64,000 nt of DNA from an uncultured Bryobacter sp. (lineage in GTDB: Bacteria > Acidobacteriota > Terriglobia > Bryobacterales > Bryobacteraceae). Below, in pieces: positions 36,243 through 53,392 of the stretch (position 1 is the first letter of the stretch; every line of letters begins with the position of its first letter). Position numbers and translations under genes: made by a program. Under the pieces are notes generated by a model. It searched no databases. It was not told the DNA's origin and saw only the letters and a list, made by a program, of their open reading frames with translations. The stretch lies in NCBI GenBank assembly GCA_964387685.1, contig CAYLXK010000024.1:7149-71148 (forward strand), written 5' to 3'.

Positions 36243-36258
36243 TGGACTAGCTTATGCT
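36243..36258 (+). promoter_or_regulatory. Candidate sigma-54 (-24/-12) promoter for hypF
   Basis: TGGACTAGCTTATGCT, with GG and GC separated by 10 nt, about 26 nt upstream of ATG 36284 and with AAGG in between. Confidence 0.3.
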
Positions 36259-36283
36259 GCCGGGGCTGAGCTAAGGTTTGGGG

Positions 36284-38554
36284 ATGAGCTCCGAAGGCGA
36301 GAGGCGGCACCGCTGGCGAATGCGCGTCAGGGGGGTGGTGCAGGGAGTGGGATTCCGGCCTTTCGTGGCGCGGCTTGCGGGGGAACTCGGGCTGGATGGC
36401 TGGGTGCGCAATCGGACCGGGGCGGTGGACCTAGAGGTGGAGGGAAGTCTTGCGGCACTGCGGCGCTTTCAGGAACGGATGGAGGAGGAAGCACCGCCGG
36501 CGGCCACGATTGAGCATGTGGAGAGGGAGGACTGCAGCGTCACAGGAGCGCCGGGCTTTCAGATTGGCTCGAGCCTGGAAGGCGAGAGCCAGAGTGGCGG
36601 CCTGCCGGCGGACTTGTCGATGTGCGAGGAGTGCCGGCGAGAGCTGGGCGATCCAGGGGATCGCCGTTACGGTTATGCGTTTTTGAACTGCACGGCGTGT
36701 GGGCCGCGTTATTCGATTGTGCGGGCCTTGCCCTATGACCGTGTGCGCACTTCGATGGACGTGTTTCCGCTTTGCCCGCGGTGCCGGGAGGAGTATGAAG
36801 ACCCCCGGGATCGGCGCTACCATGCGGAGCCGATCGCTTGCCCGCAATGTGGTCCGCAACTGGAGTATGCCGGAACAGTGGAAAAGTCAGCAGGGACGGC
36901 GGTTGAACTGGCGGCGGAGGCGCTGCGGGCGGGCCAAACGGGAGCGATCCAAGGAATTGGCGGCTTTCATCTCGCGGTGAATGCGCGCGACGGAGCGGCG
37001 GTGGGACGGTTGCGGGAGCGCAAAGGGCGGGGCGAACAGCCTTTGGCTTTGATGGTGCGTGATCTGGCGACGGCGAGGGAGTTTGTGGAGCTGGATGAGC
37101 AGGCGGTGGGACTGCTAAAGGCGTCGAGTGCGCCGATTGTCCTGTTGCCCAAGAGGGGGCTGACGCAGGTGGGGGAGGCTCTGGCGCCGGGGAACGGGTA
37201 CCTGGGCGTGTTGCTTCCGTATAGCCCGATGCACTGGCTGCTGCTGCATCAGGAGGAAGACCTGGATGCCTTGGTGATGACGTCTGGCAATCGGCATGGG
37301 GAGCCGATGGCCACGAGTAGGCAGGAGGCGAGGGAGAAGCTGGGGGCGTTGGCGGATTTTTTTCTCACGCATAACCGGGAGATTGTGGCGGCGGCGGACG
37401 ACTCTGTGGTGCGGCTGTATCGAGGGAGGGCGCTGGCGATCCGGCGGGGGCGGGGATATACCCCGCTGATGTTGCAGATTCCGGTGGAAGGGGGAACGGT
37501 GGTAGCGGCGGGGGCGGAACTGAAGGCGGCGGTGGGAGTGGCGAAAGGAGAGCGGGTGTGGCTGGGGCCGCACTTAGGGGATGTGGAGAATTTGGCGACC
37601 TTGGAGGCATTGGAGAAGAATGTGAATCACCTGAGCGGCTTGTTTCGGGTGGAGGCCGAAGCGGTGGTGCACGATGCGCATCCGGGCTACCTGTCGACGG
37701 AATGGGCCCAGCGCTATGCGGCCAAGAGGGGAATTGTGGCTTGGGGGGTGCAGCATCACCGGGCGCATGTTGCTTCCGTGCTGGCGGAGTATGGCGTGGG
37801 GCCGGAGGAGCGAGTGGTGGCGGCGGTCTTTGATGGGACGGGCTATGGGGACGACGGCGCGATCTGGGGTGGGGAGTTCTTTTGTGGACCGGTGGCGGCG
37901 CTGAAACGGCGAAGGCATTTGCCCTATGTGCTGCTGCCCGGGGGCGATGGGAGTGCCAGAAGGCCCGCGCTGGCCGCGGTGGCGCACTTGGCGGCGTGCG
38001 GAATCGACTGGGAGGATACGGCGGCCGGGCGAGGGCTGGGGGCGGTGGAGAAGAGTTTGCTTGCGCGGCAGATGGAGCGGGGATTCCATTGTCATGCCAC
38101 GTCGAGTATGGGAAGACTGTTCGATGCGGCGGCGAGCCTGCTGGGGGTGCGGCAGCGGATTCGGTACGAGGCGCAAGCGGCCATCGAGATGGAGGCCCGC
38201 GCGGCGGCCTGGGGCAGGGAGGAGAGCTACGGGGCGGGGTTGTGGCGACTGGACGAACTGTGGCGGGAGTTGTTGGACGATGGAGCGGAAATAGAAGCGC
38301 GGGCGCGGCGCTTTGGGGGATGCGTGACGCGCTGGACGATGGAGACTGTGACGAATTTGTGTGCCGGGGAGGGATCGGAGACGGTGGTGCTGGCGGGCGG
38401 GGTATTTCAGAACGTGTTGCTGCTGCAGGAGCTAACGCGAAAGCTGGAAATGGCGGGATTGCGGGTATTAGTGCCGCGCTGGTTGCCGCCCAACGATGGA
38501 GGTCTGGCGCTAGGTCAGTTGTACCTGGCGGCAACCCAGTGCGGGCCACGCTAA
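36284..38554 (+). CDS. hypF: [NiFe] hydrogenase maturation carbamoyltransferase HypF
   Basis: Acylphosphatase RVRGVVQGVGFRPFV. Two zinc-finger pairs CxxC-x18-CxxC (CEEC...CTAC; CPRC...CPQC). YrdC-like and Kae1-like regions. ATG 36320 is an alternative start. Confidence 0.9.
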   Translation: MSSEGERRHRWRMRVRGVVQGVGFRPFVARLAGELGLDGWVRNRTGAVDLEVEGSLAALRRFQERMEEEAPPAATIEHVEREDCSVTGAPGFQIGSSLEGESQSGGLPADLSMCEECRRELGDPGDRRYGYAFLNCTACGPRYSIVRALPYDRVRTSMDVFPLCPRCREEYEDPRDRRYHAEPIACPQCGPQLEYAGTVEKSAGTAVELAAEALRAGQTGAIQGIGGFHLAVNARDGAAVGRLRERKGRGEQPLALMVRDLATAREFVELDEQAVGLLKASSAPIVLLPKRGLTQVGEALAPGNGYLGVLLPYSPMHWLLLHQEEDLDALVMTSGNRHGEPMATSRQEAREKLGALADFFLTHNREIVAAADDSVVRLYRGRALAIRRGRGYTPLMLQIPVEGGTVVAAGAELKAAVGVAKGERVWLGPHLGDVENLATLEALEKNVNHLSGLFRVEAEAVVHDAHPGYLSTEWAQRYAAKRGIVAWGVQHHRAHVASVLAEYGVGPEERVVAAVFDGTGYGDDGAIWGGEFFCGPVAALKRRRHLPYVLLPGGDGSARRPALAAVAHLAACGIDWEDTAAGRGLGAVEKSLLARQMERGFHCHATSSMGRLFDAAASLLGVRQRIRYEAQAAIEMEARAAAWGREESYGAGLWRLDELWRELLDDGAEIEARARRFGGCVTRWTMETVTNLCAGEGSETVVLAGGVFQNVLLLQELTRKLEMAGLRVLVPRWLPPNDGGLALGQLYLAATQCGPR

Positions 38555-38563
38555 ACTTTCGAG

Positions 38564-39946
38564 GTGTCCTTGCCCCCGCAACTTTCGCTTGCCATTGTGG
38601 ACGATAACCTGGACAGCCTGGAGCTCATGCAGGAGGCACTGCACGAGGAAGGAATCGAGGTTCACTACTTCAGCGTGCCTGAAGAGGGGCTGGAGTTCAT
38701 TCTGCAAAAGCGGCCGCAGATCGTTATGACGGACTTGGTGATGCCGCGCCTGGACGGTATGGCCATGCTGGATCGCATCATGGCGGTGGATCCGACGATC
38801 GATGTGATCCTGATGACCGCCTACTATTCGACGGAGTCCGCGGTGGAGGCGATCCGGAAGGGTGCGACAGACTATCTGGACAAGCCGATTTCCGTAGAGA
38901 CGTTGCGCAAGAGGGTGGGCAATTTAGCGCGGATGCATCGGGCGAGATTGCGGGCGCTGGATCCGCAACAGAACTACCCAAATGGCCACGAGTTTGAAGG
39001 GATGATCGGCAATAGTCCGGAAATGTGGAAACTCTACGCGCAAATCCAGCGGGTGGCGCCGCATTTTCGGACGTTGCTGGTTCAGGGAGCGACCGGGACC
39101 GGTAAGGAACTGGTGGCAAGAGCGCTACATCGTTTAAGCGGAGTGCGGGGAGAGCTGGTGGCGCTGAATTGCTCGGCGGTGGTGGAGACGTTGTTTGAGA
39201 GCGAGCTATTCGGGCACGTGAAGGGGGCCTTCACGGGAGCGACGGGAAACAAAACGGGCCTGTTTGAGCACGCGCACGAGGGTACCCTGTTTCTCGACGA
39301 GATTGGGGATATGCCGCTGGCGACGCAAGCCAAGCTGTTGCGCGCGGTGCAGCATCAGGAGGTGCAGGCCTTGGGGGCGCTAACGGCGCGGAAGGTGGAG
39401 GTGCGGGTGATTGCGGCCACGCACCGGGATCTGCGGGCGATGATTCTGGAAGGACGATTCCGCGAAGATTTGTTTTACCGTTTGGCGATGGTGGAGTTGC
39501 ATGTGCCGAGCCTGCTGCAGCGCAACGGGGATGTGGAATTGCTGGCGCGTAGCCTGACGCGGAAGTGGGCTAAACAATATGGGCGGGAACTACAGGGTTT
39601 GACGCCCCGAGCCATGACGGTGTTGAAGCGCCATTTGTGGCCGGGCAACGTGCGGGAACTGGAGAACGTAATTGGGCACGCGGCGATGATGACGCGGGGG
39701 CCGCAAATTGATGTGGCGGATTTTCCGGGATATTTGATTCGGGGCGAGCCAGGAATGGGCGAAGGGAAGCGGCGCGCGGGGGCCGGGGAGGACGCGGGCG
39801 GCCTGGCGGGTCTGGCGGAGCGGGAAAAGGAATTGCTGGTTGAGGCCTTGAATAAGAGCGGAGCCAACCAGAGCCGCGCGGCCCGGATTCTACAGATTAG
39901 CCGGGATAAGCTGCGCTACCGGATGAAGAAGTACGACCTGGACTAG
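38564..39946 (+). CDS. Sigma-54-dependent NtrC-family response regulator (HupR/HoxA-like position)
   Basis: Receiver ([13 protein letters not shown]). AAA+ ([27 protein letters not shown]). Fis-type HTH ([21 protein letters not shown]). GTG start 9 nt after the hypF stop. Confidence 0.85.
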
Positions 39947-39983: not shown

Positions 39984-41900
39984 TTAACGGCCGAGGTGCA
40001 GGCCGACGGTAATTTGCTGCACGCCAAAGGCCTCGTATGCGAATAGGCTTTGGCCGTAAGAGATGTTACGCCATTCGGCCAGGAAGCCCAATTGGGAATG
40101 GAGGGGGATGCGCAGACGGCCCAAGGGTTGGTAGTAGCGGCTGGGGCGGCTGCCGGAGGAGCGAAAGACACTGCCGCCGAGCGTGAGGAGGCTGTGGCGG
40201 GGGAGGCGCAGGTCTGCGGCGAGAGTGCCGGTGTGTGCGTTGTCGCGGTAGAGGCTGCGCTCGGGATCGTAGCCGACGGGGTCAAGATAGGTGAGGTCGG
40301 AAAAGATGGTGGAGCGGGTGTAGTCCGCCATGACGGAGAAGGCTTTGCGGGTCCACTGGAGAGTGAGGTTGGATTGCTGGGAACGGAAATCGAGACCGAC
40401 GCCCAGGGTGGGATTGGAGTTGTTGAGGCGCACGAAGCGGGAATTGAGCTGCCAGGAATCGGAAATCTGGTAGCGGGCGCGCAGGCGGAGTTGTTCAAAG
40501 TTTTGGAGGCTAGTGCGGAAGTAGGTTTGATCGCCGCGGCCGACTTCGGTTTCGGCATTGAAGGTGAGCTTAGTAGTGGGCCGGAAGACGAAGCCACCCA
40601 GGGCGGAATGGCGGCGAAGCGCGGCGCCTTCGAGGACGGGGCCGGGAGCGAGCGAGGCGCGGCGCACCTCGGAGTCTCCCCAGAGAAAGCGGTGGCCGCC
40701 AAAGAGGGTAAAGCGCTTGCTGAAGTCGTAGAAGACCTGGAGGCGCTGTTCGTTTTGCCGCCAGATGAGGCGGTCGTTGGAATTGACCGGAGGCAGCGAG
40801 CGCGCGTCTACGGTGCTCTGGAGGAAAAGCGAACCCGCGTTGTGGGTGCGTTCGATTTGCCAGGAATCGAGGACGCGCAGGCGCGCCAGGGGCCGGACTT
40901 CGAGGGTGAGGCCGCCGGCGGTCCTGGGCTGGCTGGCATAGCCGGTGGCGAGGGATTGTTGGCCGTTAACGAAACGCAAAGTGTCCAGGCGAAGGATCGT
41001 GCCTTGCGCGGACTCATTGAACGTGACTTCGGAGCGAGGGCGGGAATAGTAGAATTCGGCGCTGATGTCGAGCCAAGCGAGGGGAGAGAGGGTGAGGTCC
41101 GCGGAGGAGTAGATGTGCCCACCGTTCACGTCATAAAGCTGCGTGGCGCGGTCTATGAGGAGAGGGCGGCCGAAGTAAGTGGATTCTCGATTGCCGGTGT
41201 TGCGCAGGGTGTTAACGAGAGAGCTTTCATCGCGGAAGCGGGCGCCGCCTTGTTCGAGGGAGAGGTGGAGCTTTTCCAGTTCCAGGCGCAGGCCACCGCG
41301 TACGACGGTGTAGCCGTAATCGATGCGGCTGGCGGCGGGGTAGCTGTTTTCGTCGAGGACGAAGGGGCTGACGCCGGAGCCGAGGCCCGTATTCTGAGCG
41401 ACGCCGAAGAAGGGGGTCCAGCGGCGGCCGGGAAGGAAGTCGAAGTCGGCGTTCCAGAAGCGCTGGCGGGTATCGGTGGCGCGCTGGTTGGTGGTGTAGG
41501 CCTCGGGGCCGAGCTTGGCGAGTTGGGGACTGGCGAAGGAAGGCAAGGCGTTGAAATAGGCGAGGTTGCGGTAACTGAAGGTGGCCCGGTAGAGGGCGGA
41601 CTTTTCCGCATTTAACAGAAAGGTGTTAAGAGGGTCGCCCCAGTTGGCGCCATGGAGGCGCAGCTCATCGAGAAAGGCGAAGGAAGGGGGCTTGTAGGTG
41701 GTCTGGAACTGGAGCAGGCGAGGACCTTCGCCGAGATTGACGATGCTGCGATAAGTGTTAAAGCTGCCGTGCTGGCCGGCAAGGGCGCGGTAGCCGATGT
41801 CGCTGGAGGCTTGGAAGGGGGATTCCGCAGGCGTGGGGGCCGCGGCTGGCTCCTGGGGGTGCATCAGGACGGCAAGGAGGAGGGACGCGAGGAGTCTCAT
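39984..41900 (-). CDS. MtrB/PioB-like outer-membrane beta-barrel (porin partner of decaheme cytochrome)
   Basis: 638 aa. Short signal peptide. Alternating hydrophobic/polar beta-strand pattern throughout with Y/F/W/R-rich girdles. ATGA overlap with the MtrA-like gene. The call rests mainly on size, composition and synteny. Confidence 0.6.
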   Translation of the reverse strand: MRLLASLLLAVLMHPQEPAAAPTPAESPFQASSDIGYRALAGQHGSFNTYRSIVNLGEGPRLLQFQTTYKPPSFAFLDELRLHGANWGDPLNTFLLNAEKSALYRATFSYRNLAYFNALPSFASPQLAKLGPEAYTTNQRATDTRQRFWNADFDFLPGRRWTPFFGVAQNTGLGSGVSPFVLDENSYPAASRIDYGYTVVRGGLRLELEKLHLSLEQGGARFRDESSLVNTLRNTGNRESTYFGRPLLIDRATQLYDVNGGHIYSSADLTLSPLAWLDISAEFYYSRPRSEVTFNESAQGTILRLDTLRFVNGQQSLATGYASQPRTAGGLTLEVRPLARLRVLDSWQIERTHNAGSLFLQSTVDARSLPPVNSNDRLIWRQNEQRLQVFYDFSKRFTLFGGHRFLWGDSEVRRASLAPGPVLEGAALRRHSALGGFVFRPTTKLTFNAETEVGRGDQTYFRTSLQNFEQLRLRARYQISDSWQLNSRFVRLNNSNPTLGVGLDFRSQQSNLTLQWTRKAFSVMADYTRSTIFSDLTYLDPVGYDPERSLYRDNAHTGTLAADLRLPRHSLLTLGGSVFRSSGSRPSRYYQPLGRLRIPLHSQLGFLAEWRNISYGQSLFAYEAFGVQQITVGLHLGR

Positions 41901-42883
41901 CGCAAGAAGTCCCGGCTAATGTGAGAGCCATGCACCTTGGAGTGGCACACCGTGCAGTTTTGGTAGACGGGCAAGCGCAGGTCGTGAAAGCCGGTGGGAA
42001 CGGTTCCAAGCGTGCCGGAGCGGTTAGAGAGGGCAGGGGTGTTGGCGTGGCATTCGAGACAGAGGTTGCTGACTTGGGCGCGATTCAGAAGGCGGGGATT
42101 GGCCGAGCCATGATTCTCGTGGCAAGCGGAGCAGCCTTCGAGGCGAATAGGGGCGTGCTCAAAGACGAAGGGACCGCGCTTGTCGGCGTGGCACTTGAAG
42201 CAACCGGGTTCGGCGTTCGTGGTGCGGGCGGTAGTGTTAAGGCCGAAGGGCCGTGAAGTGCCGTGGGGATTGTGGCAATCGATGCAGGACATGGCGCCCG
42301 CGGGGACGGCGTGGCCATGGGGGCGCTGGAAGGAAGCCCAGGCGCTGGCGTGGCAGGTGGAACAGAGTTCATTGACGCGCGTGGCCCGGGAGGTAGGAAG
42401 AGCCAAGCGGCTCAGTGACGCGGGGGATTGAGGCGTGAAATCCCGAAAGAGGGGAACGGAGGAATCGTTTAAGGCATGGTGAACCGAGTGACAAGAGACG
42501 CAGGAGACTTGTACCTTGGCGTGGGAACCGCTGATGCGGCCGGCGTGGGTGGCCTGATTCTTGTGGCAGGACAAGCAGGAAGAGTCCGCCTCGCGGGGCG
42601 TGGCTTTGCTGTGATTGAGAATGAACTTGGCTTCGGCGGCTTCGCCGTGCTTTAAGCCCGGCCCGTGGCAGGATTCGCAGGACTGGCCTTTCCAGCCGCG
42701 GACGGTGTCCGTTTCCACTTTGCCGTGGCGAGATTTCAAGAAGGCCTTGCCGAGGTCCTCATGGCAAACCAGGCAGGCTTCGGTGCCGGCGTAGCCCTCT
42801 TTGTCCGTGCGCGCTTTTTTGGGCGCAGCGAAGGTGGCGGCAGCCAGCACAAAGAAAATCGCCGAGGCGACCAGGGGCCGCAT
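41897..42883 (-). CDS. MtrA/DmsE-family periplasmic decaheme c-type cytochrome
   Basis: 328 aa, signal peptide, ten CxxCH sites. Blocks collinear with Shewanella MtrA as I recall it: CESCHGPGLKH, CIDCHNPHG, CFKCHADKRGPFVFEHAP...CSACHENHGS...CLECHA, and C-terminal CTVCHSKVHGS. Confidence 0.85.
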   Translation of the reverse strand: MRPLVASAIFFVLAAATFAAPKKARTDKEGYAGTEACLVCHEDLGKAFLKSRHGKVETDTVRGWKGQSCESCHGPGLKHGEAAEAKFILNHSKATPREADSSCLSCHKNQATHAGRISGSHAKVQVSCVSCHSVHHALNDSSVPLFRDFTPQSPASLSRLALPTSRATRVNELCSTCHASAWASFQRPHGHAVPAGAMSCIDCHNPHGTSRPFGLNTTARTTNAEPGCFKCHADKRGPFVFEHAPIRLEGCSACHENHGSANPRLLNRAQVSNLCLECHANTPALSNRSGTLGTVPTGFHDLRLPVYQNCTVCHSKVHGSHISRDFLR

Positions 42884-42884
42884 G

Positions 42885-44924
42885 CTATTGAGCGTGAACT
42901 CTGGCCACGGAGAACTCGGCGTTGGGGCCGTGGCAGACGGTGCAGCTCTCCCCCAGCGGCGCGGTGTTCAGTTGCGCGTGGGCCGCCGCCTCCTTGGAGG
43001 TGTGGCAACTGAGGCAGGCGGCCGAGGTGGCCCCGGGCGTGGTCAGCCAAGCTCGCGGGTCCGTGACGGGCAGCAGATTTGGCCGCAGGGGCAGGTTCTG
43101 CGAATTATTGACGTGGCAGGTGCTGCAATTGGCGGCGGTGGTGGGGAAGCCGATGTTACTGAAGTCGTTGACGGAGGCGTTAAAACCGTAAATGATGAGC
43201 GGCCGGCCCTGTTCCTTGCCGGTATGGATCCGGTGGATCATCGAGGCAAAGCTGATGCTTTCATTGGGGGCCTGGGCGGCGGGACGGCGAGCGGAGTCCG
43301 TCATGGTGGAGTTGTGGCAAACAACGCACTCGGAAATTTCATTGCGGTTGCGGCCGTGGGCTTCGATGCGCGTGTGGCAGACATTGCACTTCTCGGTGGT
43401 TACGACTTGGCGACGGGGCTCGACCCGGGAAGAGTCCACGCTGAAATAGGTAATGACATTTTTGAGGGGATCGCGGACGGTGGTGGGAATGCGGCCGGGA
43501 CCTTCAAAAGAAACGTTGCGGTAGCCTTCGGCGCTGATGGAGTAGGTGCCCTGGGCGTCGCTGGGGATGGCGCGAGCAAAGCGGTGCGACGCGGTGCCGC
43601 TGGGGGAAAGGGTATCGGTGCGGGAGGCTTCCGACCAGTACGCGGTGTAATCGGGCGCGGGCCCGGCGAGAATGAGCGAAAGCGCCGTCATATCTGTTGG
43701 GGCAAGAATCTTGCCTTCGGAATCCTTGAGGCGATAGGTAATCGTCGGGTTTTGGCCGGGCGCGGTATCGCGTACCTCAAGCAGCTCGATCGTCTGGCCT
43801 TTGAGATTTTTCGAAAACTCGGGAACGACATGGGCGCCCTTGACGGAGATATCCCACTCGCGTTCTCCCTCGGGCCGGTGGCACTGGGAGCAACGGGAAT
43901 CGTCGGTCTGGGCAATGTGACCTTTGCCGGCGGCGAAATCAATGCCGTCGTGGCAGGAGCCGCAAGCGGCGCGGGTCGGGTTAAACAGGGCCGTGGCCTG
44001 GGACGCCGCGTTGGGGCCGGATTGGGTATGGCAAGCGGCACAATTGCGTGGGTTGGCCGGGAAGCCGATGGTGGAGTAATCGTGAAGGGTCTGCTGGTTT
44101 CCGATGATGGTGTACTTCGTGCCGGCCCGGACGCTGGGCAGATCCTTACCCATGTGGATCTTATGGGTCAGCACGGTCATGTCGACGGTATTGCCGGTGT
44201 CGGGGTCTACGGTTTGGGGGGTATGGCAGAGAACGCACATTTCCATGCCGCGGCGGGAGCCGCCATGGGCGGATAGCGTCACGTGGCAGGTTGTGCACGA
44301 AGCGGTTTTGATGACGTCGCGCACCTGAGTGACAGGGCTGCCGTCGGGGACGAAATCGAAGGTGGCGCTGGCGTAGTTGGTGCCGAGGTCGAAGGCGGTG
44401 AGGTTACGGTTGGAGTAGGCCCCAATAGTGTGAGTAGCGGTGCGGTCGAAATTGGCGGGGGCGCGGGTGCGGAAGGTGTAAGTGTACTCGCCGTCGTCGT
44501 TCTTGACCCAGGTGCCACCGGTGTCGGCGGCCGCCTGCGTGGCCGAGACGCGGGTAATGGGACTGGTTTGGATGCGCGTGGTGTAGGAGGTGTAAACGGA
44601 TTGATCTTTGGGCAAGAAGGCGGCGACAAAACTGATGGAGACGGGGCCGGGCGTGAAGACGCCTTCGCGGTCGAGAGGAACCCCCAAGGGATCGGTGATG
44701 CGGACCCGCGCCGCCATCGAGCCGTCGGGATTGACGACGGCGGCGACGATCTTCAAGTTAAGGCCCGGCCGGACGAAATTGATCGTCTTTTCGTCGGCGT
44801 AGAAGGCCTTCTCCAGTTCGCTGAAACTGCGCTTGCCCAGGCCTGTGGCGAGAGAGGCGGCGGCGAGAAGCAGCCCCACGACGGTGGGCCAGAAGTATCG
44901 ATGGGTTCGAAAAAACATGCTCAT
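42885..44924 (-). CDS. MtrC/OmcA-like decaheme c-type cytochrome (5+5 heme architecture)
   Basis: Ten CxxCH in two clusters of five (ORF residues 269-408 and 572-724), each preceded by a 160-210 aa heme-free region. Paralogous halves (THKIHMGK / IHRIHTGK). Start MSMFF overlaps the upstream stop (ATGA). ATG 44918 is an alternative start with GGAGGA 5 nt upstream. Confidence 0.65.
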   Translation of the reverse strand: MSMFFRTHRYFWPTVVGLLLAAASLATGLGKRSFSELEKAFYADEKTINFVRPGLNLKIVAAVVNPDGSMAARVRITDPLGVPLDREGVFTPGPVSISFVAAFLPKDQSVYTSYTTRIQTSPITRVSATQAAADTGGTWVKNDDGEYTYTFRTRAPANFDRTATHTIGAYSNRNLTAFDLGTNYASATFDFVPDGSPVTQVRDVIKTASCTTCHVTLSAHGGSRRGMEMCVLCHTPQTVDPDTGNTVDMTVLTHKIHMGKDLPSVRAGTKYTIIGNQQTLHDYSTIGFPANPRNCAACHTQSGPNAASQATALFNPTRAACGSCHDGIDFAAGKGHIAQTDDSRCSQCHRPEGEREWDISVKGAHVVPEFSKNLKGQTIELLEVRDTAPGQNPTITYRLKDSEGKILAPTDMTALSLILAGPAPDYTAYWSEASRTDTLSPSGTASHRFARAIPSDAQGTYSISAEGYRNVSFEGPGRIPTTVRDPLKNVITYFSVDSSRVEPRRQVVTTEKCNVCHTRIEAHGRNRNEISECVVCHNSTMTDSARRPAAQAPNESISFASMIHRIHTGKEQGRPLIIYGFNASVNDFSNIGFPTTAANCSTCHVNNSQNLPLRPNLLPVTDPRAWLTTPGATSAACLSCHTSKEAAAHAQLNTAPLGESCTVCHGPNAEFSVARVHAQ

Positions 44925-46318
44925 CCTCCAAGTTCCTGTATTGCCTTCAGATTCTTCTCTTCGACGCCCAGGACCTTGTGGCAGGCCTCGCAATCCTGGG
45001 TAATGGCTTTGCCGGGCGTTTTTGCCTTCAAGTCGTCGCCATGACAGCGGAAGCAACCGGGTGAGGCCGTGTGCCCGACATGTTGGGGATAGGTTCCCCA
45101 AGTGATTTTCATTTCCGGAAAGACGTTGCGGCGGTGGAGTGTGGCCAGTTCCTGGCTGGCTTGGCCGAGCGTGGAGGCGTGGGTCGCGAGGGCCGCCGGT
45201 TGATGAAGGCGGTAGTAGCGATTCAGCTCCTCGGCGATGGCTTTAGAGGGGTCGGGCTTGGAGGCGTAGTCTTTGGCCAGGACTTCCAAGGCGGCCCGAC
45301 GGAAGAAAGGAATCGATTGGGGAAGCCGGCCCTGGGTCATGGCGAGATCGATGGCCCGTTCAGGATTCTCAAATTCATGGGCGGGCCGATTGTGGCAATC
45401 GAGACAATCCATGCGCCGGCTAAAGGCGGCTTTGGCTTTGCCCGAGCTAAAGTCGGCCGACTCATAGGTGTCGGTTTGACCTCCCTTGGTCACGCGAACG
45501 GCCAGGATGGTTTCGCGCTTAGGGTCGGCGGCGTCATAGTCGATGCTCAGGCCGCGGCCCATGTGGGCGCCGTGAATGCCTTGGCCCTCGGCGCCCCCCA
45601 GTTTTAGCAGTAGCGCGGTCTCCAGGCGTTCGCCCTGGTCGTCGAACTGGGTGCGCCGCCAGAGGCGATTGCCGTAGTCGTGATTGCGGGAGTGGCAGTT
45701 CTCACAGGTTTCCGAGGCCGGTTTGAGGGCATGAGGTGGAGAGGGAATGGGACGGTTGTATCCGCCGGTCATCACGAGAAAGAGTTGCCGGGTTCCATTG
45801 AGCTTGGCGCGGATGGCGTTGCCCGCGCCTTCGCCAATGTGGCAGGCGACGCATTTAACTTGCGCATGGGAACCAGCCTGATAGGCGCGATGTTCGGGAT
45901 CCATGACATGGCAAGCGGTGCCGCAGAAGTTGGTGCTCTCCATGTAATGGACGGCCTGGTAGGTAAGCGCCCCGCCGATGACGAGATTGACAAAGGTTGC
46001 TCCCGCGATAAAGACGAGAAAGCGCCGGATCTTGGGGTTGCTGAGCTCGATTTTTTCCGGCCAGTGGATTTGGTGATCCGGGGCCTCGCGCCGGCGCTGC
46101 ATGCTGATGCCGATGGGCACCAGGAGGAGCCCTAGGAAGAAGGCGGCGGGTAGAGCGACAAACTGGAGAATGCCGAGGTATCCGGAGGCCTCGCTCGCGC
46201 CCGTCAGGAAGATCCAGAGGACCATAGCCGAAAGCACGAAGAAGAAGCCGGTGCGGCTGATCCAGTTGTCGGTTAAATAGAGTACCGGCAAGAGCCAGCG
46301 CTGTGCGAATTTCCCCAT
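44921..46318 (-). CDS. Membrane-anchored NapC/NirT-like multiheme cytochrome (candidate quinol dehydrogenase)
   Basis: 465 aa with three N-terminal TM helices. NapC-like TNFCGTACHVM...SHAQVKCVACH. Five CxxCH (CVACH, CENCH, CLDCH, CFRCH, CEACH) plus one CxxxCH (CGTACH). Confidence 0.7.
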   Translation of the reverse strand: MGKFAQRWLLPVLYLTDNWISRTGFFFVLSAMVLWIFLTGASEASGYLGILQFVALPAAFFLGLLLVPIGISMQRRREAPDHQIHWPEKIELSNPKIRRFLVFIAGATFVNLVIGGALTYQAVHYMESTNFCGTACHVMDPEHRAYQAGSHAQVKCVACHIGEGAGNAIRAKLNGTRQLFLVMTGGYNRPIPSPPHALKPASETCENCHSRNHDYGNRLWRRTQFDDQGERLETALLLKLGGAEGQGIHGAHMGRGLSIDYDAADPKRETILAVRVTKGGQTDTYESADFSSGKAKAAFSRRMDCLDCHNRPAHEFENPERAIDLAMTQGRLPQSIPFFRRAALEVLAKDYASKPDPSKAIAEELNRYYRLHQPAALATHASTLGQASQELATLHRRNVFPEMKITWGTYPQHVGHTASPGCFRCHGDDLKAKTPGKAITQDCEACHKVLGVEEKNLKAIQELGG

Positions 46319-46357
46319 TTTGCGTGTCTGAAGTTTGCGTGGTCCGAGGGAATTGGA

Positions 46358-46675
46358 CTATTGCTTGAGAGTGCGGACGTAGGCCAAGATGTTGGCGACA
46401 TCCTTTTCGACGGCGGGCATGGCCTTCATCTTGCCGACGCCTTCGAGGGTTTCTTTCTTCAGGGCAGCGTCGGACTTAGCCTGGACCTCTTTCGAGCCGA
46501 GGTGCTTCATTTCGACCTTGAGCATTTTGCCGATGGCGGCGTTGGGGGCGCCGTCGGCGCCATGGCACTTCTTGCAGGCGGCGTCATAAGCGGTCTTACC
46601 GGACGCCAAGTCGGCGGCGGAGGCCAAAGCGGACACCCAGACGAGAGAAAGCAGCAAGGGCAGAGTTCGTTTCAT
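46358..46675 (-). CDS. Periplasmic monoheme class I cytochrome c
   Basis: 105 aa from ATG 46675. Signal MKRTLPLLLSLVWVSALASA. Single CKKCH. Distal Met candidate in GKMKAMP. Confidence 0.8.
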   Translation of the reverse strand: MKRTLPLLLSLVWVSALASAADLASGKTAYDAACKKCHGADGAPNAAIGKMLKVEMKHLGSKEVQAKSDAALKKETLEGVGKMKAMPAVEKDVANILAYVRTLKQ

Positions 46676-46687
46676 CGCGGCTCTACA

Positions 46688-46703
46688 AGCAAGTGAGTGG
46701 CCA
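46688..46703 (-). promoter_or_regulatory. Sigma-54-like -24/-12 element upstream of the cytochrome operon (weak; implies a near-leaderless mRNA)
   Basis: The minus strand reads TGGCCACTCACTTGCT with correct GG-N10-GC spacing. The GC lies only 13 nt before the ATG. Confidence 0.2.
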
Positions 46704-46766
46704 TTCAAAAGTAGCTGGAAAGTTGAAGCTTGACGATAGTTGGGTGGGGGAAAATACACAAAGATT

Positions 46767-46780
46767 GGGGAAAATTCCCC
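46767..46780. promoter_or_regulatory. Inverted repeat GGGGAA-aa-TTCCCC in the divergent control region (candidate activator site)
   Basis: 6-bp arms with a 2-nt spacer, preceded by a partial direct copy TGGGGGAAAAT. Located about 60-75 bp upstream of the hyaA sigma-54-like promoter. Confidence 0.25.
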
Positions 46781-46840
46781 AAGCGGGAAATCGTTTAGTG
46801 GAGAACAGGGGCAATCTCGCAGAGAGAAGGAGGTTTTTAT

Positions 46841-46856
46841 TGGCCCCCTGATTGCA
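46841..46856 (+). promoter_or_regulatory. Candidate sigma-54 (-24/-12) promoter for the hydrogenase operon
   Basis: TGGCCCCCTGATTGCA against the consensus TGGCAC-N5-TTGCA. About 28 nt upstream of ATG 46885, with AAAGGAAG as RBS. Confidence 0.45.
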
Positions 46857-46884
46857 CAGTAGGGACTGGCTGAAAGGAAGTGGA

Positions 46885-48000
46885 ATGATGCTGGCCACCG
46901 CACCCGCTTCAACGTCTCAAGTTCTTCAACGGCGAGGAATTAGCCGCCGCGACATACTCACTTTTTGCACTATGACGGCCGCGTCCCTCGGCCTGCCCCC
47001 GGAGGCGGCGGCGCAAATCGCCGAGGCGCTGGAAACAAAGCCGCGCATCCCGGTGCTTTGGATTCATGGGTTGGAATGCACGTGTTGCAGCGAATCGTTT
47101 CTGAGGTCGACGCACCCGGTTGCGCAGGACATTCTGTTCAACATGATTTCGCTGGATTATGACGACACGCTCCAGGCCGCGGCGGGCCATCAGGCCGAAG
47201 AGATCCGCAAGCGAATCATGAAGGAGTACAAAGGCCAATACCTGCTGGCGGTGGAAGGCAACGCGCCTACCAACGACGGGGGCGTCTATTGCACGGTGGG
47301 CGGCGAAACGTTTACGAGCATTCTGGAAGAGGCCGCGGCGGGCGCCAAGGCCATCCTGGCCTGGGGCAGCTGCGCGTCCAACGGATGTGTGCAGGCGGCT
47401 TACCCAAACCCGACCGGCGCGAAGCCCGTGTACAAGATGATCACCGACAAGCCGGTCATCAACGTGCCCGGATGCCCGCCGATTGCGGAAGTGATGACCG
47501 GGGTATTGAGCTATCTCCTGACCTTCGACCGGATTCCGGAACTGGATGCGTTCCGGCGGCCGAAGATGTTTTACGGGCAGCGGATTCATGACCGCTGCTA
47601 CCGAAGGAGCTACTTTGACGCGGGGCAATTTGTTGAGAAGTGGGACGACGAGGGGGCGCGGAAGGGTTGGTGCCTTTACAAGATGGGGTGCCGCGGTCCG
47701 TCAACCTACAATGCCTGCGCTTCGATGAAGTGGAACGAGTGTGTTTCGTTCCCGATCGGTTCTGGGCATGGCTGTTTCGGATGCTCGGAAGACAATTTTT
47801 GGGATAACGGACCGTTCTATGAGCGCTTGGCGAATATTCCGGTGCCGACCACGGACCTGACGGCGGACCGGGTAGGTCTGGGCTTGAGCGCCGTGGTAGC
47901 CGGGGCGATTGCCGCGCATGGAGTGGCGGCGCTAGCCAAACACAATCTGACGCAGATCAAAGCAGCCCCCGCAAGCAGTACGACGAAGCCGGAAGCCTAG
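46885..48000 (+). CDS. hyaA: [NiFe] hydrogenase small subunit, group 1 (Hyd-1/MBH-like), Tat signal, C-terminal TM anchor
   Basis: [12 protein letters not shown] Tat motif. [33 protein letters not shown]-terminal helix [20 protein letters not shown]. Near-collinear with E. coli HyaA as I recall it. Confidence 0.9.
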
Positions 48001-48009
48001 GAGCCAGCT

Positions 48010-49737
48010 ATGTCTACCCGAGTCGTAGTAGACCCGATTACCCGCATTGAAGGACATCTGCGGGTGGAAGCGATCCTGAACGATCGGAATGTGATTGGCG
48101 ACGCCTTGTCCAGCGGGACGATGTGGCGCGGGATCGAATTGATTGTGCAGGGGCGGGACCCAAGAGAGGTATGGGCCTTCGCCGAACGGATTTGCGGGGT
48201 GTGTACGACGATCCACGCGCTGGCCAGCGTGCGCAGCGTGGAGAACGCGCTCGGAATCGAGATCCCGAAAAACGCAAGCATTATCCGCCAACTGATGAAC
48301 TTTACGCAGATCGTGCAGGATCACGTGATTCACTTTTATCACCTGCATGCGTTGGACTGGGTGGATGTGGTGTCGGCGCTGAAAGCGGATCCGGCGGCGA
48401 CCTCGGCGCTGGCGCAGAAGGTGTCGCCGCACTGGCCCAAGTCCTCGCCGGGCTACTTTGCCGATACGGCGGCGACGTTGAAGAAGTTTGTCGATTCCGG
48501 TCAACTCGGTATCTTTCAGAATGCCTACTGGGGCCATCCCGCCTACAAGCTGCCGCCAGAGGCGAATCTGATGGCGGTGGCGCACTATCTCGAAGCGCTG
48601 CAGTGGCAAAAGGAAGTGGCCAAGATCCACACGGTATTTGGAGGCAAGAATCCGCATCCCAACTATCTGGTGGGGGGCGTGGCGTGCGCGATCAGTCTCG
48701 AGGGCGACAACGCGCCGATCAATATGGAGCGGCTGAATTTTGTCAAGGATCTGATCACGGAAGCGATCCGGATCGTCGAGCAGCTTTATATTCCGGACCT
48801 AGTGGCGATCGCGAGCTTTTATCCGGAATGGACGAAGATCGGCGGGGGGCTGGGTAGCTTCATGTCCTACGGCGACATGCCGACGGACTACGATTTGGGC
48901 AATCCGTCGAAGTTCCGTTTTCCGCGCGGGGTGATTCTGAACAAGAAACTGGGCGAAGTGCTGCCGCTGGACCTGGCGGACTTTGGCCAGGTGCAGGAGG
49001 AGGTGACGCACTCCTGGTACGAGTACGGGAACGGGAAGCAGACCTTGCACCCATGGGAAGGCGAGACGAAGGCAAAGTATTCGGGGCCGAAACCGCCTTA
49101 TAAGCAATTGGATGAAACGCAAGGATACTCCTGGGTGAAGACCCCTCGCTGGCGAGGGCACGCGGTGGAAGTAGGGCCGCTGGCGCGGATGGTGATCGGC
49201 TATGCCTCGGGCAATGGGCCGATTCGGGATGCCGTCAAGTGGGGATTGGAGACGACGAAATTGCCGATCGAGGCGTTGTTTTCGACACTCGGACGGACCT
49301 TTGCGCGGGGCCTCGAGACGAAGCTGGCCGTGCACTGGATGAGGGACGAGTTCAACAACTTGATGGCGAATCTGAAAGCGGGCGATTTGACGACTGCGGC
49401 GACAGCGAAATGGGATCCGTCCAGTTGGCCGAAGGAGGCCAAGGGAGTGGGCTTTGTGGAGGCGCCGCGCGGCTCGTTGGGACATTGGATCCGGATCCAG
49501 GATCAGAAGACGGCGTCCTACCAGATCGTGGTGCCGTCGACATGGAACGCCTCGCCTCGCGATGCCAAGGGCCAGCACGGCGCCTATGAGGCTGCGCTGA
49601 TTGGCACGCCAATGGTGGACGGGATGAAGCCCGTCGAGATACTGCGGACGATTCATTCGTTCGACCCCTGCCTGGCCTGCGCGACGCATGTAATGGGCGC
49701 GGGCGGTGAAACCCTGGCCAAGGTAATTGTGCGTTAG
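48010..49737 (+). CDS. hyaB: [NiFe] hydrogenase large subunit, group 1
   Basis: VVDPITRIEGH. L1 motif ERICGVCTTIH. L2 motif SFDPCLACATH followed by a 15-aa tail for endopeptidase cleavage. Confidence 0.95.
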   Translation: MSTRVVVDPITRIEGHLRVEAILNDRNVIGDALSSGTMWRGIELIVQGRDPREVWAFAERICGVCTTIHALASVRSVENALGIEIPKNASIIRQLMNFTQIVQDHVIHFYHLHALDWVDVVSALKADPAATSALAQKVSPHWPKSSPGYFADTAATLKKFVDSGQLGIFQNAYWGHPAYKLPPEANLMAVAHYLEALQWQKEVAKIHTVFGGKNPHPNYLVGGVACAISLEGDNAPINMERLNFVKDLITEAIRIVEQLYIPDLVAIASFYPEWTKIGGGLGSFMSYGDMPTDYDLGNPSKFRFPRGVILNKKLGEVLPLDLADFGQVQEEVTHSWYEYGNGKQTLHPWEGETKAKYSGPKPPYKQLDETQGYSWVKTPRWRGHAVEVGPLARMVIGYASGNGPIRDAVKWGLETTKLPIEALFSTLGRTFARGLETKLAVHWMRDEFNNLMANLKAGDLTTAATAKWDPSSWPKEAKGVGFVEAPRGSLGHWIRIQDQKTASYQIVVPSTWNASPRDAKGQHGAYEAALIGTPMVDGMKPVEILRTIHSFDPCLACATHVMGAGGETLAKVIVR

Positions 49738-49746
49738 GAGCGGCTT

Positions 49747-50487
49747 ATGTCCTCACAAATTCAGGACCCGCAGACTCAAGCCATGGCCGCGCCGGGCGAG
49801 GCGGAAAGGCCGGAATCCCGCTACGTGTGGGAGAGCCCGGTGCGGATCTTTCATTGGATGATTGCGCTGGCGATTCCCGTGCTGCTGGCCACGGGCTTTT
49901 ATATAGCCTGGCCTTTTGCCTCCGTGCAGGGGGAGGCGACGGGAAACTTCTTGATGGGGAGGATGCGGCAGATTCATTTTGGGGCGGGCTACGTGTTGCT
50001 GGCCGCGTTTGCCATTCGGATTTACTGGTTTTTTGCGGGCAATCATTATGCGCGGTCGGGTTTTCCCTTCGTCTGGAAGAAGGCCTGGTGGACGCATCTG
50101 GGCGAGCAGGCGCGCGAGTACCTCACAATTCGCCTCACGAAGCGCTTTGTGGGCCACAACCAGTTGGGCGCCTTGAGCTACCTGCTCTTTGTGGGACTCA
50201 TGGGCGGCGCAGAAATCGCCACCGGCTTTGCGATGTATAGCGAATCGAATCCGGGAGGATTCTGGAGCCGGGTCTTCGGCTGGGTGATTCCGTTCTGTGG
50301 CGGTTCCTATCAAACCCACCAATGGCATCATTTCTTTGCCTGGGGCATTCTGCTGTTTATTGCGATTCACATTTATATCGTGGTGCTGGACAGCATTTAC
50401 CTCGATAACGGAATGGTGGGCAGTATCTTTACCGGACGCAAGTTTGTAAGGAGCACGGATGCCGACAGCAAGACCTGGATCAGTTAA
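49747..50487 (+). CDS. hyaC: Ni/Fe-hydrogenase b-type cytochrome subunit
   Basis: PVRIFHWMIALAIPVLLATGFYI. Four TM helices with conserved His (HFGAGY, HQWHHFF). Confidence 0.85.
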   Translation: MSSQIQDPQTQAMAAPGEAERPESRYVWESPVRIFHWMIALAIPVLLATGFYIAWPFASVQGEATGNFLMGRMRQIHFGAGYVLLAAFAIRIYWFFAGNHYARSGFPFVWKKAWWTHLGEQAREYLTIRLTKRFVGHNQLGALSYLLFVGLMGGAEIATGFAMYSESNPGGFWSRVFGWVIPFCGGSYQTHQWHHFFAWGILLFIAIHIYIVVLDSIYLDNGMVGSIFTGRKFVRSTDADSKTWIS

Positions 50488-50965
50488 GCCGGTGCTGGTG
50501 TTGGGCTTGGGCAATGTCTTATTGACCGACGACGGCTTTGGGCCCACGCTACTCGAGCGGTTGCGGAGGCGGAGCGCCGCCGGGGCGAAGGTGGAGTTTG
50601 TCGATGGGGGAACGATGGGTTTGGGGTTGCTAAGCTTGCTGGCCGAGCGGCGATGCCTGCTAATTTTGGATGCGTTTCGCGCGGGCCGGCCGGCGGGGAC
50701 GCTGATGGTGGAGCGGAACTTCGAGTGGCAGCAGGCGGGCAAGGTCTTGGGTCGAAGCGCGCACGACGGGAACGCGGCTGGTTTGCTGGCGGTGGCGACG
50801 CTGACGGGCGACTTGCCGCCGCGTCTGGCTTTGGTGGGGGTCGAACCGCAGACCTTGGATACCGGGGTGGGCTTAAGCGACACGGTGGAAGCGCAGCTGC
50901 CCGAGGCGGAGCGGGAAGCCTGGCGATTGATTGAGGAATTGGTGGAGTTGTCCGTATGTGTTTAG
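50459..50965 (+). CDS. hyaD: Hydrogenase maturation endopeptidase (HyaD/HybD/HupD family)
   Basis: [17 protein letters not shown] and LILDA motifs. Confidence 0.85.
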
Positions 50966-51225
50966 CGATACCGGGGCAGGTGATGCGGATCGAGGAGATT
51001 GGCTTCCACCGGGTAGCCCAGGTCTGCTTTGGCGGAGTGGAGCGGCCGGTGTTTGTGGATTTCGTGCCCGAGGCGGTAGCGGGCGACTATGTGCTGGTAC
51101 ACGTGGGCTTCGCGCTCAGCAAGATCGACGAAGAAGAGGCCAAGGCGAGCTTCGCATTAATGGAACGACTGGGATTCATGGAGCCGCTGGACGAGGCCGA
51201 AGAAGTGACGCAGGAGGACCCATGA
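50956..51225 (+). CDS. hypC: HypC/HybG/HupF-family hydrogenase chaperone
   Basis: [10 protein letters not shown]-terminus with the essential Cys2. 89 aa. Confidence 0.9.
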
Positions 51226-52325
51226 GATACGTCGATGAGTATCGGGACCCGGCGCTAGCTCAGGCGGTACTGCGTGAGATCCGCGCGCGCGTAACGCGGC
51301 CTTGGGTGTTGATGGAGATCTGCGGCGGGCAGACCCACAGCCTGATGCGCTATGGAATCGACGAGCTGCTGCCGCCGGAACTGGAACTGGTGCATGGGCC
51401 GGGCTGCCCGGTTTGCGTTACGCCGCTGGAAATGATCGATAAGGCGCTGGAGATCGCCGCGCGGCCCGAAGTGATTTTTCTCACCTATGGCGACATGATG
51501 CGCGTGCCGGGATCGGCGAGCGATTTATTGGAGGTGAAGGCGCGCGGAGGCGACGTTCGCTTTGTGTACTCGCCCATGCAGGCTGTGGAGGTGGCGCGAA
51601 AGAATCCGGGGCGGCAGGTGGTTTTCTTTGCGGTGGGATTTGAGACGACGGCGCCCGCTAACGCCATGGCCGTCTGGCGGGCGGCGAAGGAAGGGATCGG
51701 AAATTTTTCGTCGCTGGTCTCGCATGTGCTGGTGCCGCCGGCGTTAATGGTGCTGCTCGGTTCAGCCCAGAACCGGGTGCAAGGGTTGATCGCGCCGGGC
51801 CACGTATGTACGGTGGAAGGCTGCCGCGATTATGAGGCGCTGGTGGAGCGCTTCCGAGTGCCGGTGGTGGTGGGGGGCTTTGAACCATTGGATTTGTTGG
51901 AAGCGATTCTGCTGCTGGTAAGGCAGTTGGAGGAAGGGCGCTGGCTGCTGGAGAACCAGTACAAGCGAGCCGTGAGCGCGGAAGGCAATGCGGTGGCGCG
52001 CGGGCTGGTGGCGGAAGTCTACGAGGTGTGCGATCGGAAGTGGAGAGGGATCGGAGAGTTGGCGCGGAGCGGCATGCGGCTGCGGGAAAAGTATGCGGGA
52101 TTTGACGCCGAAAGGGTTTTCGGGCTGACGGGGGAAGGCGTGGCCGAAGATGTGGAGTGCCGGAGCGCGCAGGTGCTGATGGGCCAAATGAAACCGACGG
52201 ATTGCCCCGCCTTCGGAGTGCGCTGCACGCCGGAAAAGCCCCTGGGCGCGCCCATGGTCTCGAGCGAAGGGGCCTGCGCGGCCTACCATCGCTATAAGCC
52301 GCAACTGGTGCAGGTGGCGCGGTGA
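51222..52325 (+). CDS. hypD: Hydrogenase maturation factor HypD
   Basis: [27 protein letters not shown] and FETTAP. ATGA overlap with hypC. The long ORF from 50931 is an artefactual extension. Confidence 0.9.
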
Positions 52326-53392
52326 AGCGCGTGGACGCCGACGATGTGACGAATTGGACCTGCCCGCTGCCGCTGCGCCAGTACGGGCAGATCGTGATGG
52401 GGCATGGAGGAGGGGGCAAGCTTTCCGCGGATCTGGTAGAGCATCTGATTTTGCCGGCCTTGGGCGGGCAGAGCGCGGATTGTCTGGGGGACTCCACCGT
52501 CCTGCCGCCGCTGACCGGGCGCATGGCGATTTCGACGGACTCCTACGTCGTGCGGCCGATCCTGTTTCCGGGCGGCAGTATTGGCGAGTTGGCCGTGAAC
52601 GGGACGGTTAACGATTTAGCGATGTCCGGAGCGTGGCCCCTGTATATGACCGCCGGGCTGATTCTGGAGGAGGGCTTGGCGCTAACCACGCTGGCCGAGG
52701 TGCTGAACAGAATGGGGCAAGCCGCGCGGCAGGCGGGGGTGCGGATCGTCGCCGGCGATACCAAGGTGGTGGGCCGGGGGCAGGCGGACGGCATCTTTAT
52801 TCATACGGCGGGCGTGGGGGAAGTGCCGGAAGGTGTGGAGATCGGGCCTGGGAACGCGCGGCCTGGCGACGTGATTCTCTTGTCGGGAAGCGTGGGAGAT
52901 CATGGGATGGCGATCCTCTGCGCGCGGGAGGAACTGGAGTTTGACGGCGTCATCCAGAGCGACTGCGCCGCTTTGCACCGGTTGGTGCGGGCGATGCTGG
53001 AGGCGGCAGGACCGGGCGCCGTGCGGGTGTTGCGGGATCCAACTCGCGGAGGGCTCGCGGCAGCGCTGCATGAGATTGCGCGTAGTAGCCGGGTAGGGAT
53101 GGAGATTGAGGAAGGGACGGTGCCGGTAGACGACGCGGTCCGTTCCGCGTGCGAATTGATGGGGCTGGACCCTCTTCAGGTCGCCAGCGAGGGCAAGTTG
53201 GTGGCGATGGTAGACGCGGGGGCCGCCCGCCAAATCCTGGCCGCGATGCGGCTGGATCCCTTGGGAGAGAGAGCCGTCGAGATCGGCCGCGTGACGGACC
53301 GGCATCCTGGGATGCTGACGGCGCGAACGGCGATAGGAGGGCAACGCGTGATCCCCATGCCAATCGGGGAGCAGTTGCCGCGGATCTGCTAA
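52322..53392 (+). CDS. hypE: Hydrogenase maturation carbamoyl dehydratase HypE
   Basis: AIR-synthase-like fold ([21 protein letters not shown]) and the diagnostic C-terminal PRIC. GTG start overlaps the hypD stop. Confidence 0.9.

Follow-up and report, generated by a model that had tools for sequence, protein, structure and literature searches.

A probable sigma-54 control region with a shared enhancer between the hydrogenase and Mtr/ImcH operons of a Bryobacter genome

What could place hydrogen uptake and a cytochrome conduit to the cell surface under a common switch? The question is raised by a 209-bp spacer (positions 46676-46884) in a 64,000-nucleotide stretch of DNA from an uncultured Bryobacter sp. 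(C24:7149-71148; the whole stretch analysed is called the window here). The spacer separates a [NiFe] uptake-hydrogenase operon on the plus strand from an operon on the minus strand that encodes a monohaem cytochrome c, an ImcH-type protein and MtrCAB. We propose that it is probably a bidirectional, enhancer-dependent sigma-54 control region, in which one shared tandem enhancer would co-induce both operons. The genome comprises 5.40 Mb with a GC content of 60.5%, is 97.9% complete and has an intergenic share of 9.5%. The nearest public loci come from Bryobacter/Bryobacteraceae metagenome-assembled genomes (MAGs; Acidobacteriota), whose hydrogenase small subunits are 89-92% identical, and the divergent cytochrome c/hydrogenase layout is common to six relatives (L002-L007).

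Probable outward-facing sigma-54 promoters in the spacer

Two sites in the spacer match the sigma-54 core consensus TGGC-N7-TTGCW exactly, and in both the GG and GC dinucleotides lie 10 nt apart, as in the consensus TGGCAC-N5-TTGCW. The first, P_hyd (TGGCCCCCTGATTGCA, 46841..46856, plus strand), is a predicted -24/-12 promoter facing the hydrogenase operon, and its final W lies 29 nt before the ATG at 46885. Sigma-54 transcription starts ~11-12 nt downstream of the GC. The predicted start of the hydrogenase message lies near 46867, which leaves a predicted leader of ~18 nt and places the Shine-Dalgarno sequence AAAGGAAG of the hydrogenase small-subunit gene (46873..46880, plus strand) within it. 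AAGGA (46874-46878) is invariant in seven genomes. A first-pass annotation of the window, made from the letters alone, had pointed to this site, its correct spacing, the ribosome-binding site and the start codon, all of which we found as described. The second promoter, P_cyt (TGGCCACTCACTTGCT, 46688..46703, minus strand), likewise of the -24/-12 type, faces the cytochrome operon and is treated in its own section below. A promoter scan detected no sigma-70-type promoter in the spacer. The rpoN gene of this genome is intact (Sigma54_DBD match with E = 3.9e-58; 525-aa open frame; C13:62018-62491).

Counting both strands, the genome has 165 exact matches to TGGC-N7-TTGCW, compared with ~83 predicted from base composition, and only 25 of the 165 are intergenic. 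The window holds 5 exact matches, compared with 1.65 expected from shuffles. For an outward-facing exact pair in one 209-bp spacer, the estimated chance is ~1e-5 for a given spacer and ~0.02 for any spacer of the genome.

We also built a position weight matrix (PWM) iteratively from the intergenic, correctly oriented near-consensus sites of this genome, with 87 starting sequences. Its consensus is TTGGCC(C/A)-N5-TTGCA. Among ~10.8 million positions, P_hyd ranks 6th with 20.6 bits and P_cyt 19th with 18.7 bits, and 22 of the 29 genome matches with at least 18 bits are intergenic, although intergenic DNA makes up only the small share given above. It speaks against leaning on these ranks that the matrix is partly circular, both spacer sites being among its training sequences, and we therefore rely more on conservation.

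For this purpose the spacers of the window and of L002-L007 were joined in a seven-way alignment (A1), and 16 core positions were set beforehand from the sigma-54 consensus. Thirteen of these 16 are invariant in the seven genomes, compared with 34 invariant positions among the 193 that make up the rest of the intergenic DNA (Fisher p = 3e-7). Once the central block is set aside together with the promoter cores, the count falls to 15 of 152. In P_hyd, TGGC and TGC are kept throughout. In P_cyt, GGC and TGC are kept (GGC-N8-TGC), while the flanks drift. The remaining invariant clusters are the Shine-Dalgarno AAGGA, both start codons and a central block of 41 bp. Because conservation is selective for the cores, these elements are more than chance matches. 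Further afield, 26 of 79 related hydrogenase loci have a sigma-54 PWM score of at least 12 upstream of the small-subunit gene; the maximum in a coding-sequence control was 5.8. The exact matches, the PWM ranks and the conserved cores thus uphold the earlier description of the spacer that separates these operons as a divergent sigma-54 control region.

The tandem dyads and their candidate activator

Sigma-54 promoters need a bacterial enhancer-binding protein (bEBP). Between the two promoters, the first-pass annotation had picked out a palindrome with an adjacent partial direct copy as a plausible enhancer site, and this proposal has gained support. The palindrome is a perfect 18-bp inverted repeat (TTGGGGAA-AA-TTCCCCAA, 46765-46782), and an 82% direct copy of it lies 20 nt upstream (46747-46763). 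A scan flagged the palindrome as a terminator, which we rejected since no gene reads into it. The central block consists of two 16-bp dyads of the pattern TGnGn-N6-nCnCA, which we regard as putative upstream activating sequences (UAS). Dyad 1 (TGGGGGAAAATACACA, 46745..46760) is preceded by an invariant TGGGTG (46741-46746), and its T, G, G ... C, C, A positions are invariant in the seven genomes. Dyad 2 (TGGGGAAAATTCCCCA, 46766..46781) is the core of the perfect palindrome. In L006, the dyads read TGCGTCAAAACACCCA and TGCGTACTTTGACGCA.

The geometry of this block is conserved. The dyads lie 21.0 bp apart, centre to centre, in 7/7 genomes, and the centre of dyad 1 is 63.5-64.5 bp from the minus-strand -12 C, again in 7/7. 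For dyad 2, the distance to the plus-strand -12 C is either 81.5-82.5 bp (three genomes) or 71.5 bp (four genomes). An indel of 10-11 bp between the enhancer and P_hyd (columns ~165-175 of alignment A1) separates L002-L005 from the window, L006 and L007; it is the sole length change in the spacer and amounts to one helical turn, so that the phase is kept. Relative to the predicted cytochrome start, the dyads are at ~-76/-97, and relative to the predicted hydrogenase start at ~-94/-115 (or -84/-105). These positions fall in the usual range for bEBP sites (~70-150 bp upstream) with conserved phasing, binding itself being a prediction only. It counts against the proposal that no IHF consensus was found between the dyads and the promoters.

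Of the three occurrences of the tandem pattern in the genome, only the one in this spacer is intergenic. A single dyad is expected by chance at a rate of ~0.06 per 350 nt. Among the 79 related hydrogenase loci, a dyad is present within 350 nt at 21 of the 26 with a sigma-54 score of at least 12. Among the remaining 53 loci, only 4 have one, all with scores of 10-11.4. Since cytochrome genes are limited to L002-L007 among these loci, the unit of enhancer and hydrogenase promoter is, judged by this distribution, older than the recruitment of the cytochrome operon. A further dyad-like site (TGTGCGAATTTCCCCA, 46302-46317) lies 39 nt past the cytochrome c stop and overlaps the opening codons of the NapC/ImcH-like gene; it could be a chance occurrence or an additional regulator site.

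Which protein would bind the dyads? The locus encodes an NtrC-family response regulator (38564..39946, plus strand) with REC, AAA+ and HTH_8 matches in Pfam. The activator that the first-pass annotation had noted here is complete: its acceptor Asp (VMTDLVMP) is intact, and Walker A, GAFTGA and a C-terminal Fis-type helix-turn-helix are all present. It satisfies no specific NCBIfam equivalog and is one of 13 bEBPs in the genome. Orthologues with 70-73% identity are found in 6/6 close relatives. In the three genomes in which one contig carries both the orthologue and the hydrogenase gene, the former lies ~6.9 kb upstream and adjoins the end of the cytochrome operon. On its own upstream side it is preceded there by a DUF4159 gene and a PMT_2 glycosyltransferase gene; hypF, which precedes the regulator in the window, was considered for this place in the relatives and rejected. 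As the upstream neighbours differ, the conserved association is that of the regulator with the cytochrome/hydrogenase cluster.

Most other receiver-type bEBPs of this genome have an adjacent kinase, whereas none of the 45 HATPase_c matches of the genome, and thus no histidine kinase, lies on the 79-kb contig C24. Nor does the genome, at its 97.9% completeness, contain a sensor (regulatory) hydrogenase of the HoxBC/HupUV type. With neither a sensor hydrogenase nor a kinase on the contig, the regulator is, on gene content, not part of a HoxA/HoxJ/HoxBC-type H2-sensing cascade.

Alternatively, the promoters could be real and the dyads bound by a CRP/FNR-family protein or by another of the 13 bEBPs, with the locus regulator controlling something else. 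We consider this unlikely, although it has more than one argument on its side. The geometry of TGnGn-N6-nCnCA (5-6-5) is the same as that of CRP-family sites (TGTGA-N6-TCACA), and a perfect CRP-type palindrome (TGTGACGAATTTCACA) lies 83 nt upstream of the hydrogenase small-subunit gene in L015, a Thermoanaerobaculum MAG. This palindrome sits where Bryobacteraceae have the TGnGn-N6-nCnCA dyad. The contig of the regulator offers it no kinase partner, an unrelated DUF4159-glycosyltransferase operon ends with the regulator gene in the relatives, and other dyad-bearing loci have no bEBP within 6 kb of the hydrogenase gene. The phylogenetic profile does little to separate the readings: a homologue of at least 56% identity is present in 5/12 dyad-positive and 0/12 dyad-negative genomes, a comparison confounded by a paralogue of 53-61% and by MAG incompleteness.

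On the other side, the dyads are the sole conserved block at enhancer distance from both promoters, which by their nature require a bEBP, and they co-occur with sigma-54 promoters across the related loci, as counted above. The regulator has kept its position at the cluster in the three relatives in which it can be placed, despite the changed upstream neighbours. Moreover, 16-bp dyads are also typical of Fis-type helix-turn-helix activators; the NifA site TGT-N10-ACA is an example. We thus regard the locus-encoded NtrC-type regulator as most likely the activator among the candidates and, on the strength of synteny, lean slightly towards assigning the dyads to it.

A probable sigma-54 promoter next to the start codon

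P_cyt raises a second question, namely whether a sigma-54 promoter can lie so close to a start codon. The first-pass annotation had recorded the minus-strand site with its GC 13 nt from the cytochrome ATG, and had called it doubtful because this would imply a leaderless transcript. Sequence and distance are as described: the -12 C (46689) is separated by 13 nt from the A of the cytochrome c ATG (46675), and the final W by 12 nt from the ATG. The doubt, in contrast, is not borne out. We reversed it because of the conservation of the site in six relatives, a genome-wide signature of leaderless genes and a spike of sigma-54 motifs at this very spacing.

In the following, d is the offset between the final W of the motif and the A of the start codon. 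P_cyt is kept in the six relatives with d = 13-15. In every genome, the ATG of the cytochrome c gene stands directly before the charged N-region of the signal peptide, so that there is no alternative start for this protein. The predicted transcription start lies 0-2 nt upstream of the AUG, and by this predicted position P_cyt fits a leaderless geometry (5' end no more than 5 nt from the AUG, without a Shine-Dalgarno sequence).

The arrangement recurs across the genome. Gene starts were called independently of sigma-54 motifs, with a max-suffix start choice. Allowing up to one mismatch, the motif precedes 9 genes at exactly d = 13, against ~1 at each other offset, and TGGC-N8-TGC at the 13-nt offset is found 8 times, against a mean of 0.84. 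Seen from the motif, an ATG follows a loose match at offset 13 in 33 cases, compared with ~19.5 for the same codon phase. Strong matches (at least 16 bits) within 200 nt of a start number 28; 6 of them have d = 13, and the remainder form a broad mode at 24-45 nt.

The products of the genes with d = 12-14 comprise an ECF sigma factor, a Mn catalase, a universal stress protein, DUF892, DUF2383 and DUF2721 proteins, a Ysc84 protein, a cupin-hemerythrin, a ClpB-like ATPase and FlgB (flgB, d = 14). Their Pfam alignments start at residues 1-12, which argues that the start codons are right. Example sites are C21:95220-95235(-), C26:17010-17025(-), C32:37830-37845(+), C9:35151-35166(-), C1:5558-5573(+) and C15:17335-17350(+). 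Several genes of this 13-nt class adjoin bEBP genes (C21:93088, C19:23980). At C19:23563-24948 lies a 53% paralogue of the locus regulator with a kinase upstream, and its start is ~33 nt from the divergent leaderless-type sigma-54 promoter of the cupin-hemerythrin gene. With so short a gap, that enhancer would have to sit within coding sequence.

Leaderless messages seem to be common in this organism. Genome-wide, TANNNT begins 12 nt ahead of 99 called start codons, with a background of ~22. This sigma-70 leaderless signature suggests that the organism uses leaderless mRNAs widely, and the excess agrees with the share of 9.7-19.4% leaderless genes reported for Acidobacteria (PMC3160421).

Some observations weigh against calling P_cyt strictly leaderless, or the class general. 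Canonical numbering, in which the C is -12, puts the A of the ATG at +3 and not at +1. The cytochrome message may thus carry 2 nt before the AUG, and 3-4 nt in relatives. In raw counts over 19 genomes of the genus, the 13-nt pattern occurs 61 times against 12 for a reversed control, and a 16-nt spacer 56 times against 5. Raw counts made without gene calls are not decisive, so that the exact 13-nt spacing rule is established in this genome only.

These positions also feed an alternative in which only P_hyd is functional. Here, sigma-54 would bind the minus-strand motif unproductively or in a regulatory role, and another, unrecognised promoter would serve the cytochrome operon and give a leadered mRNA without a Shine-Dalgarno sequence. 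The canonical start, lying 2-4 nt ahead of the AUG instead of coinciding with it, would suit this alternative, as would a TANNNT box at -12 from the cytochrome c ATG in the relative L004. Several findings make it quite improbable. GGC-N8-TGC is invariant in the seven genomes at a near-fixed distance from the ATG while the flanks vary. The spacer has no sigma-70-like promoter, and the -10 box is unconserved in relatives. The 13-nt arrangement is found at 8 other genes, including flgB and stress genes, and the dyads keep a fixed distance to P_cyt. The minus-strand site is thus probably a real sigma-54 promoter and, judged by the spacing of motifs and start codons, a genome-wide class of putatively leaderless or near-leaderless sigma-54 promoters exists, with the motif 13 nt before the start codon. 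Among the matches of a full-text literature search, no paper had sigma-54-driven leaderless mRNAs in its title or abstract; the leaderless transcript of the PexR paper is of the sigma-A type.

Finally, it is scarcely credible that chance alone accounts for all elements, in an AT-richer spacer served by ordinary unrecognised promoters: 140 of the 165 exact consensus matches lie inside genes and are presumably due to chance, but here two exact matches in one spacer face outward toward the flanking genes, conservation is core-selective, the helical geometry is conserved, and dyads and sigma-54 promoters are associated across 79 loci.

Taken together, we propose the following working of the shared-enhancer control region. 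Sigma-54 RNA polymerase would form closed complexes at both outward-facing -24/-12 promoters. A bEBP, most likely the locus-encoded NtrC-family response regulator, would bind the tandem 16-bp dyads as two dimers, 21 bp apart and on the same helix face. It would then assemble into an ATPase ring, reach either promoter via DNA looping and open it, so that the H2-uptake hydrogenase operon and the cytochrome c-ImcH-MtrCAB operon would be co-induced. The hydrogenase mRNA would have an 18-nt leader with a Shine-Dalgarno sequence, while the cytochrome mRNA would start at the AUG or within ~2 nt of it and be translated as a leaderless message.

Textbook precedents exist for hydrogenase operons under sigma-54 control and for one enhancer shared by divergent sigma-54 promoters. 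What would be new is the near-leaderless or leaderless sigma-54 arm, as part of a genome-wide class, and the coupling of the sole uptake hydrogenase to an Mtr/ImcH conduit. A leaderless sigma-54 promoter would combine tight, activator-dependent on/off control with translation initiation without a ribosome-binding site. Leaderless surveys covered only Pribnow boxes (PMC3160421) and would have missed such a class, which affects how gene starts are annotated and regulons predicted in Acidobacteria and probably elsewhere. Physiologically, one conserved enhancer appears to switch the sole uptake hydrogenase and a complete cytochrome conduit from quinol to the outer surface. This predicts that these bacteria, which are abundant in soil and freshwater, link the oxidation of H2 to the reduction of extracellular acceptors, e.g. 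Fe(III), and the shared enhancer would offer a testable regulatory handle on this physiology. Going one step further, we are cautiously inclined to conclude that Bryobacter makes leaderless mRNAs from start-codon-fused sigma-54 promoters (a fifth to a quarter of the strong ones here). These would include that of the Mtr/ImcH operon, which shares an enhancer with the sole hydrogenase operon, so that H2 oxidation would be hard-wired to extracellular electron transfer.

The wider locus and comparison with known systems

The hydrogenase operon (hyaABCD-hypCDE, 46885..53392, plus strand) is assigned by Pfam and NCBIfam matches, with gene gaps of at most 9 nt or overlaps. It encodes, in this order, the [NiFe] small subunit (46885-48000), the large subunit, cytochrome b, a maturation protease, hypC, hypD and hypE. 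Its large subunit is the only [NiFe] large subunit of the genome (one NiFeSe_Hases match genome-wide). The cytochrome operon (39984..46675, minus strand) is likewise assigned by family matches in Pfam and NCBIfam, and its genes overlap or lie 39 nt apart. It starts with the monohaem cytochrome c (46358-46675; ATG at 46675), which is followed on the same strand by the NapC/NirT-like (ImcH-type) multihaem protein (44921-46318), an MtrC/OmcA decahaem protein (42885-44924), an MtrA-like multihaem protein (41897-42883) and a 638-aa protein without a Pfam or NCBIfam match (39984-41900). Cytochrome c, ImcH and MtrC are found at the same place in L002-L007.

Further upstream in the window lie hypB and hypA (minus strand), hypF (plus strand; ATG at 36284) and the NtrC-family regulator, whose start is 9 nt past the hypF stop. 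This arrangement (35177-39946), with hypB-hypA/hypF directly upstream of the regulator, differs from that of relatives (L096-L098, L099-L102). In those, the DUF4159-PMT_2 pair precedes the regulator, and the hyp genes occupy another place, which in G003 is beyond the hydrogenase operon. The different position of the hyp genes indicates a local rearrangement.

The first-pass annotation had extended the sigma-54 regulon to hypF, on account of a sigma-54-like element before this gene (TGGACTAGCTTATGCT, 36243..36258, plus strand). The element is present, but we rejected it as a sigma-54 promoter. In the genome-wide PWM scan, a check that the annotation had proposed and in which both spacer sites came near the top, it scores 2.0 bits, while 2348 genome positions reach at least 8 bits. 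No dyad lies near it, and the hypA-hypF spacers of L099, L100 and L102 hold no equivalent. A single sigma-54 regulon that takes in hypF and hypAB is thus unsupported, but the operon-internal maturation genes (the protease, hypC, hypD and hypE) do lie behind P_hyd. Elsewhere in the window, another exact sigma-54 consensus (TGGCCATCCAATTGCA, 13295-13310, plus strand) lies 33 nt before an open reading frame of 106 aa (13343-13663), after which comes one of 342 aa (13703-14731).

How does this locus compare with established systems? The hyc/hyp formate regulon of E. coli, controlled by FhlA, and zraP/zraSR, controlled by ZraR, are divergent and sigma-54-driven. As in these, each of the divergent operons here has a -24/-12 promoter, with the putative activator sites in the shared spacer, and as in hyc/hyp the targets include a hydrogenase and its maturation genes. 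Unlike in either, the partner operon is an Mtr-type multihaem conduit, and one promoter abuts the start codon and is predicted to give a message without a leader. FhlA and ZraR belong to formate- and zinc-sensing systems, whereas the candidate activator here is a receiver-domain response regulator without a linked kinase.

A second comparison is with the HoxA/HupR systems of Cupriavidus necator, Bradyrhizobium and Rhodobacter. In line with these, an NtrC-family response regulator gene (REC, AAA+, helix-turn-helix) lies in a [NiFe] uptake-hydrogenase locus, and the structural operon has a sigma-54 promoter. In C. necator, the PSH promoter is sigma-54 dependent (TTGGCGCACATCCTGC; PMC4974937). 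In contrast to these systems, the Bryobacter genome has no sensor hydrogenase, the contig has no histidine kinase and the regulator falls into no specific NCBIfam equivalog. The absence of the first two indicates that an H2-sensing cascade of the HoxA/HupR type is missing.

The conduit itself corresponds to the MtrCAB 'Group 5' of Bryobacterales described by Baker et al. 2022 (PMC8805035), which has these conduit genes and comes from this clade. Neither hydrogenases nor sigma factors come up in that paper, and an enhancer shared with a hydrogenase operon is absent from it.

Lastly, Actinobacteria, Deinococcus-Thermus and Acidobacteria are known to have leaderless genes in which a sigma-70 -10 box precedes the start codon by 12 nt (PMC3160421, PMC12340547). 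Like these, P_cyt stands at a fixed distance from an AUG that has no Shine-Dalgarno sequence, in a genome that carries the TANNNT signature as well. Unlike these, the promoter element is of the -24/-12 sigma-54 type, which lies explicitly outside those surveys (PMC3160421, PMC12340547).

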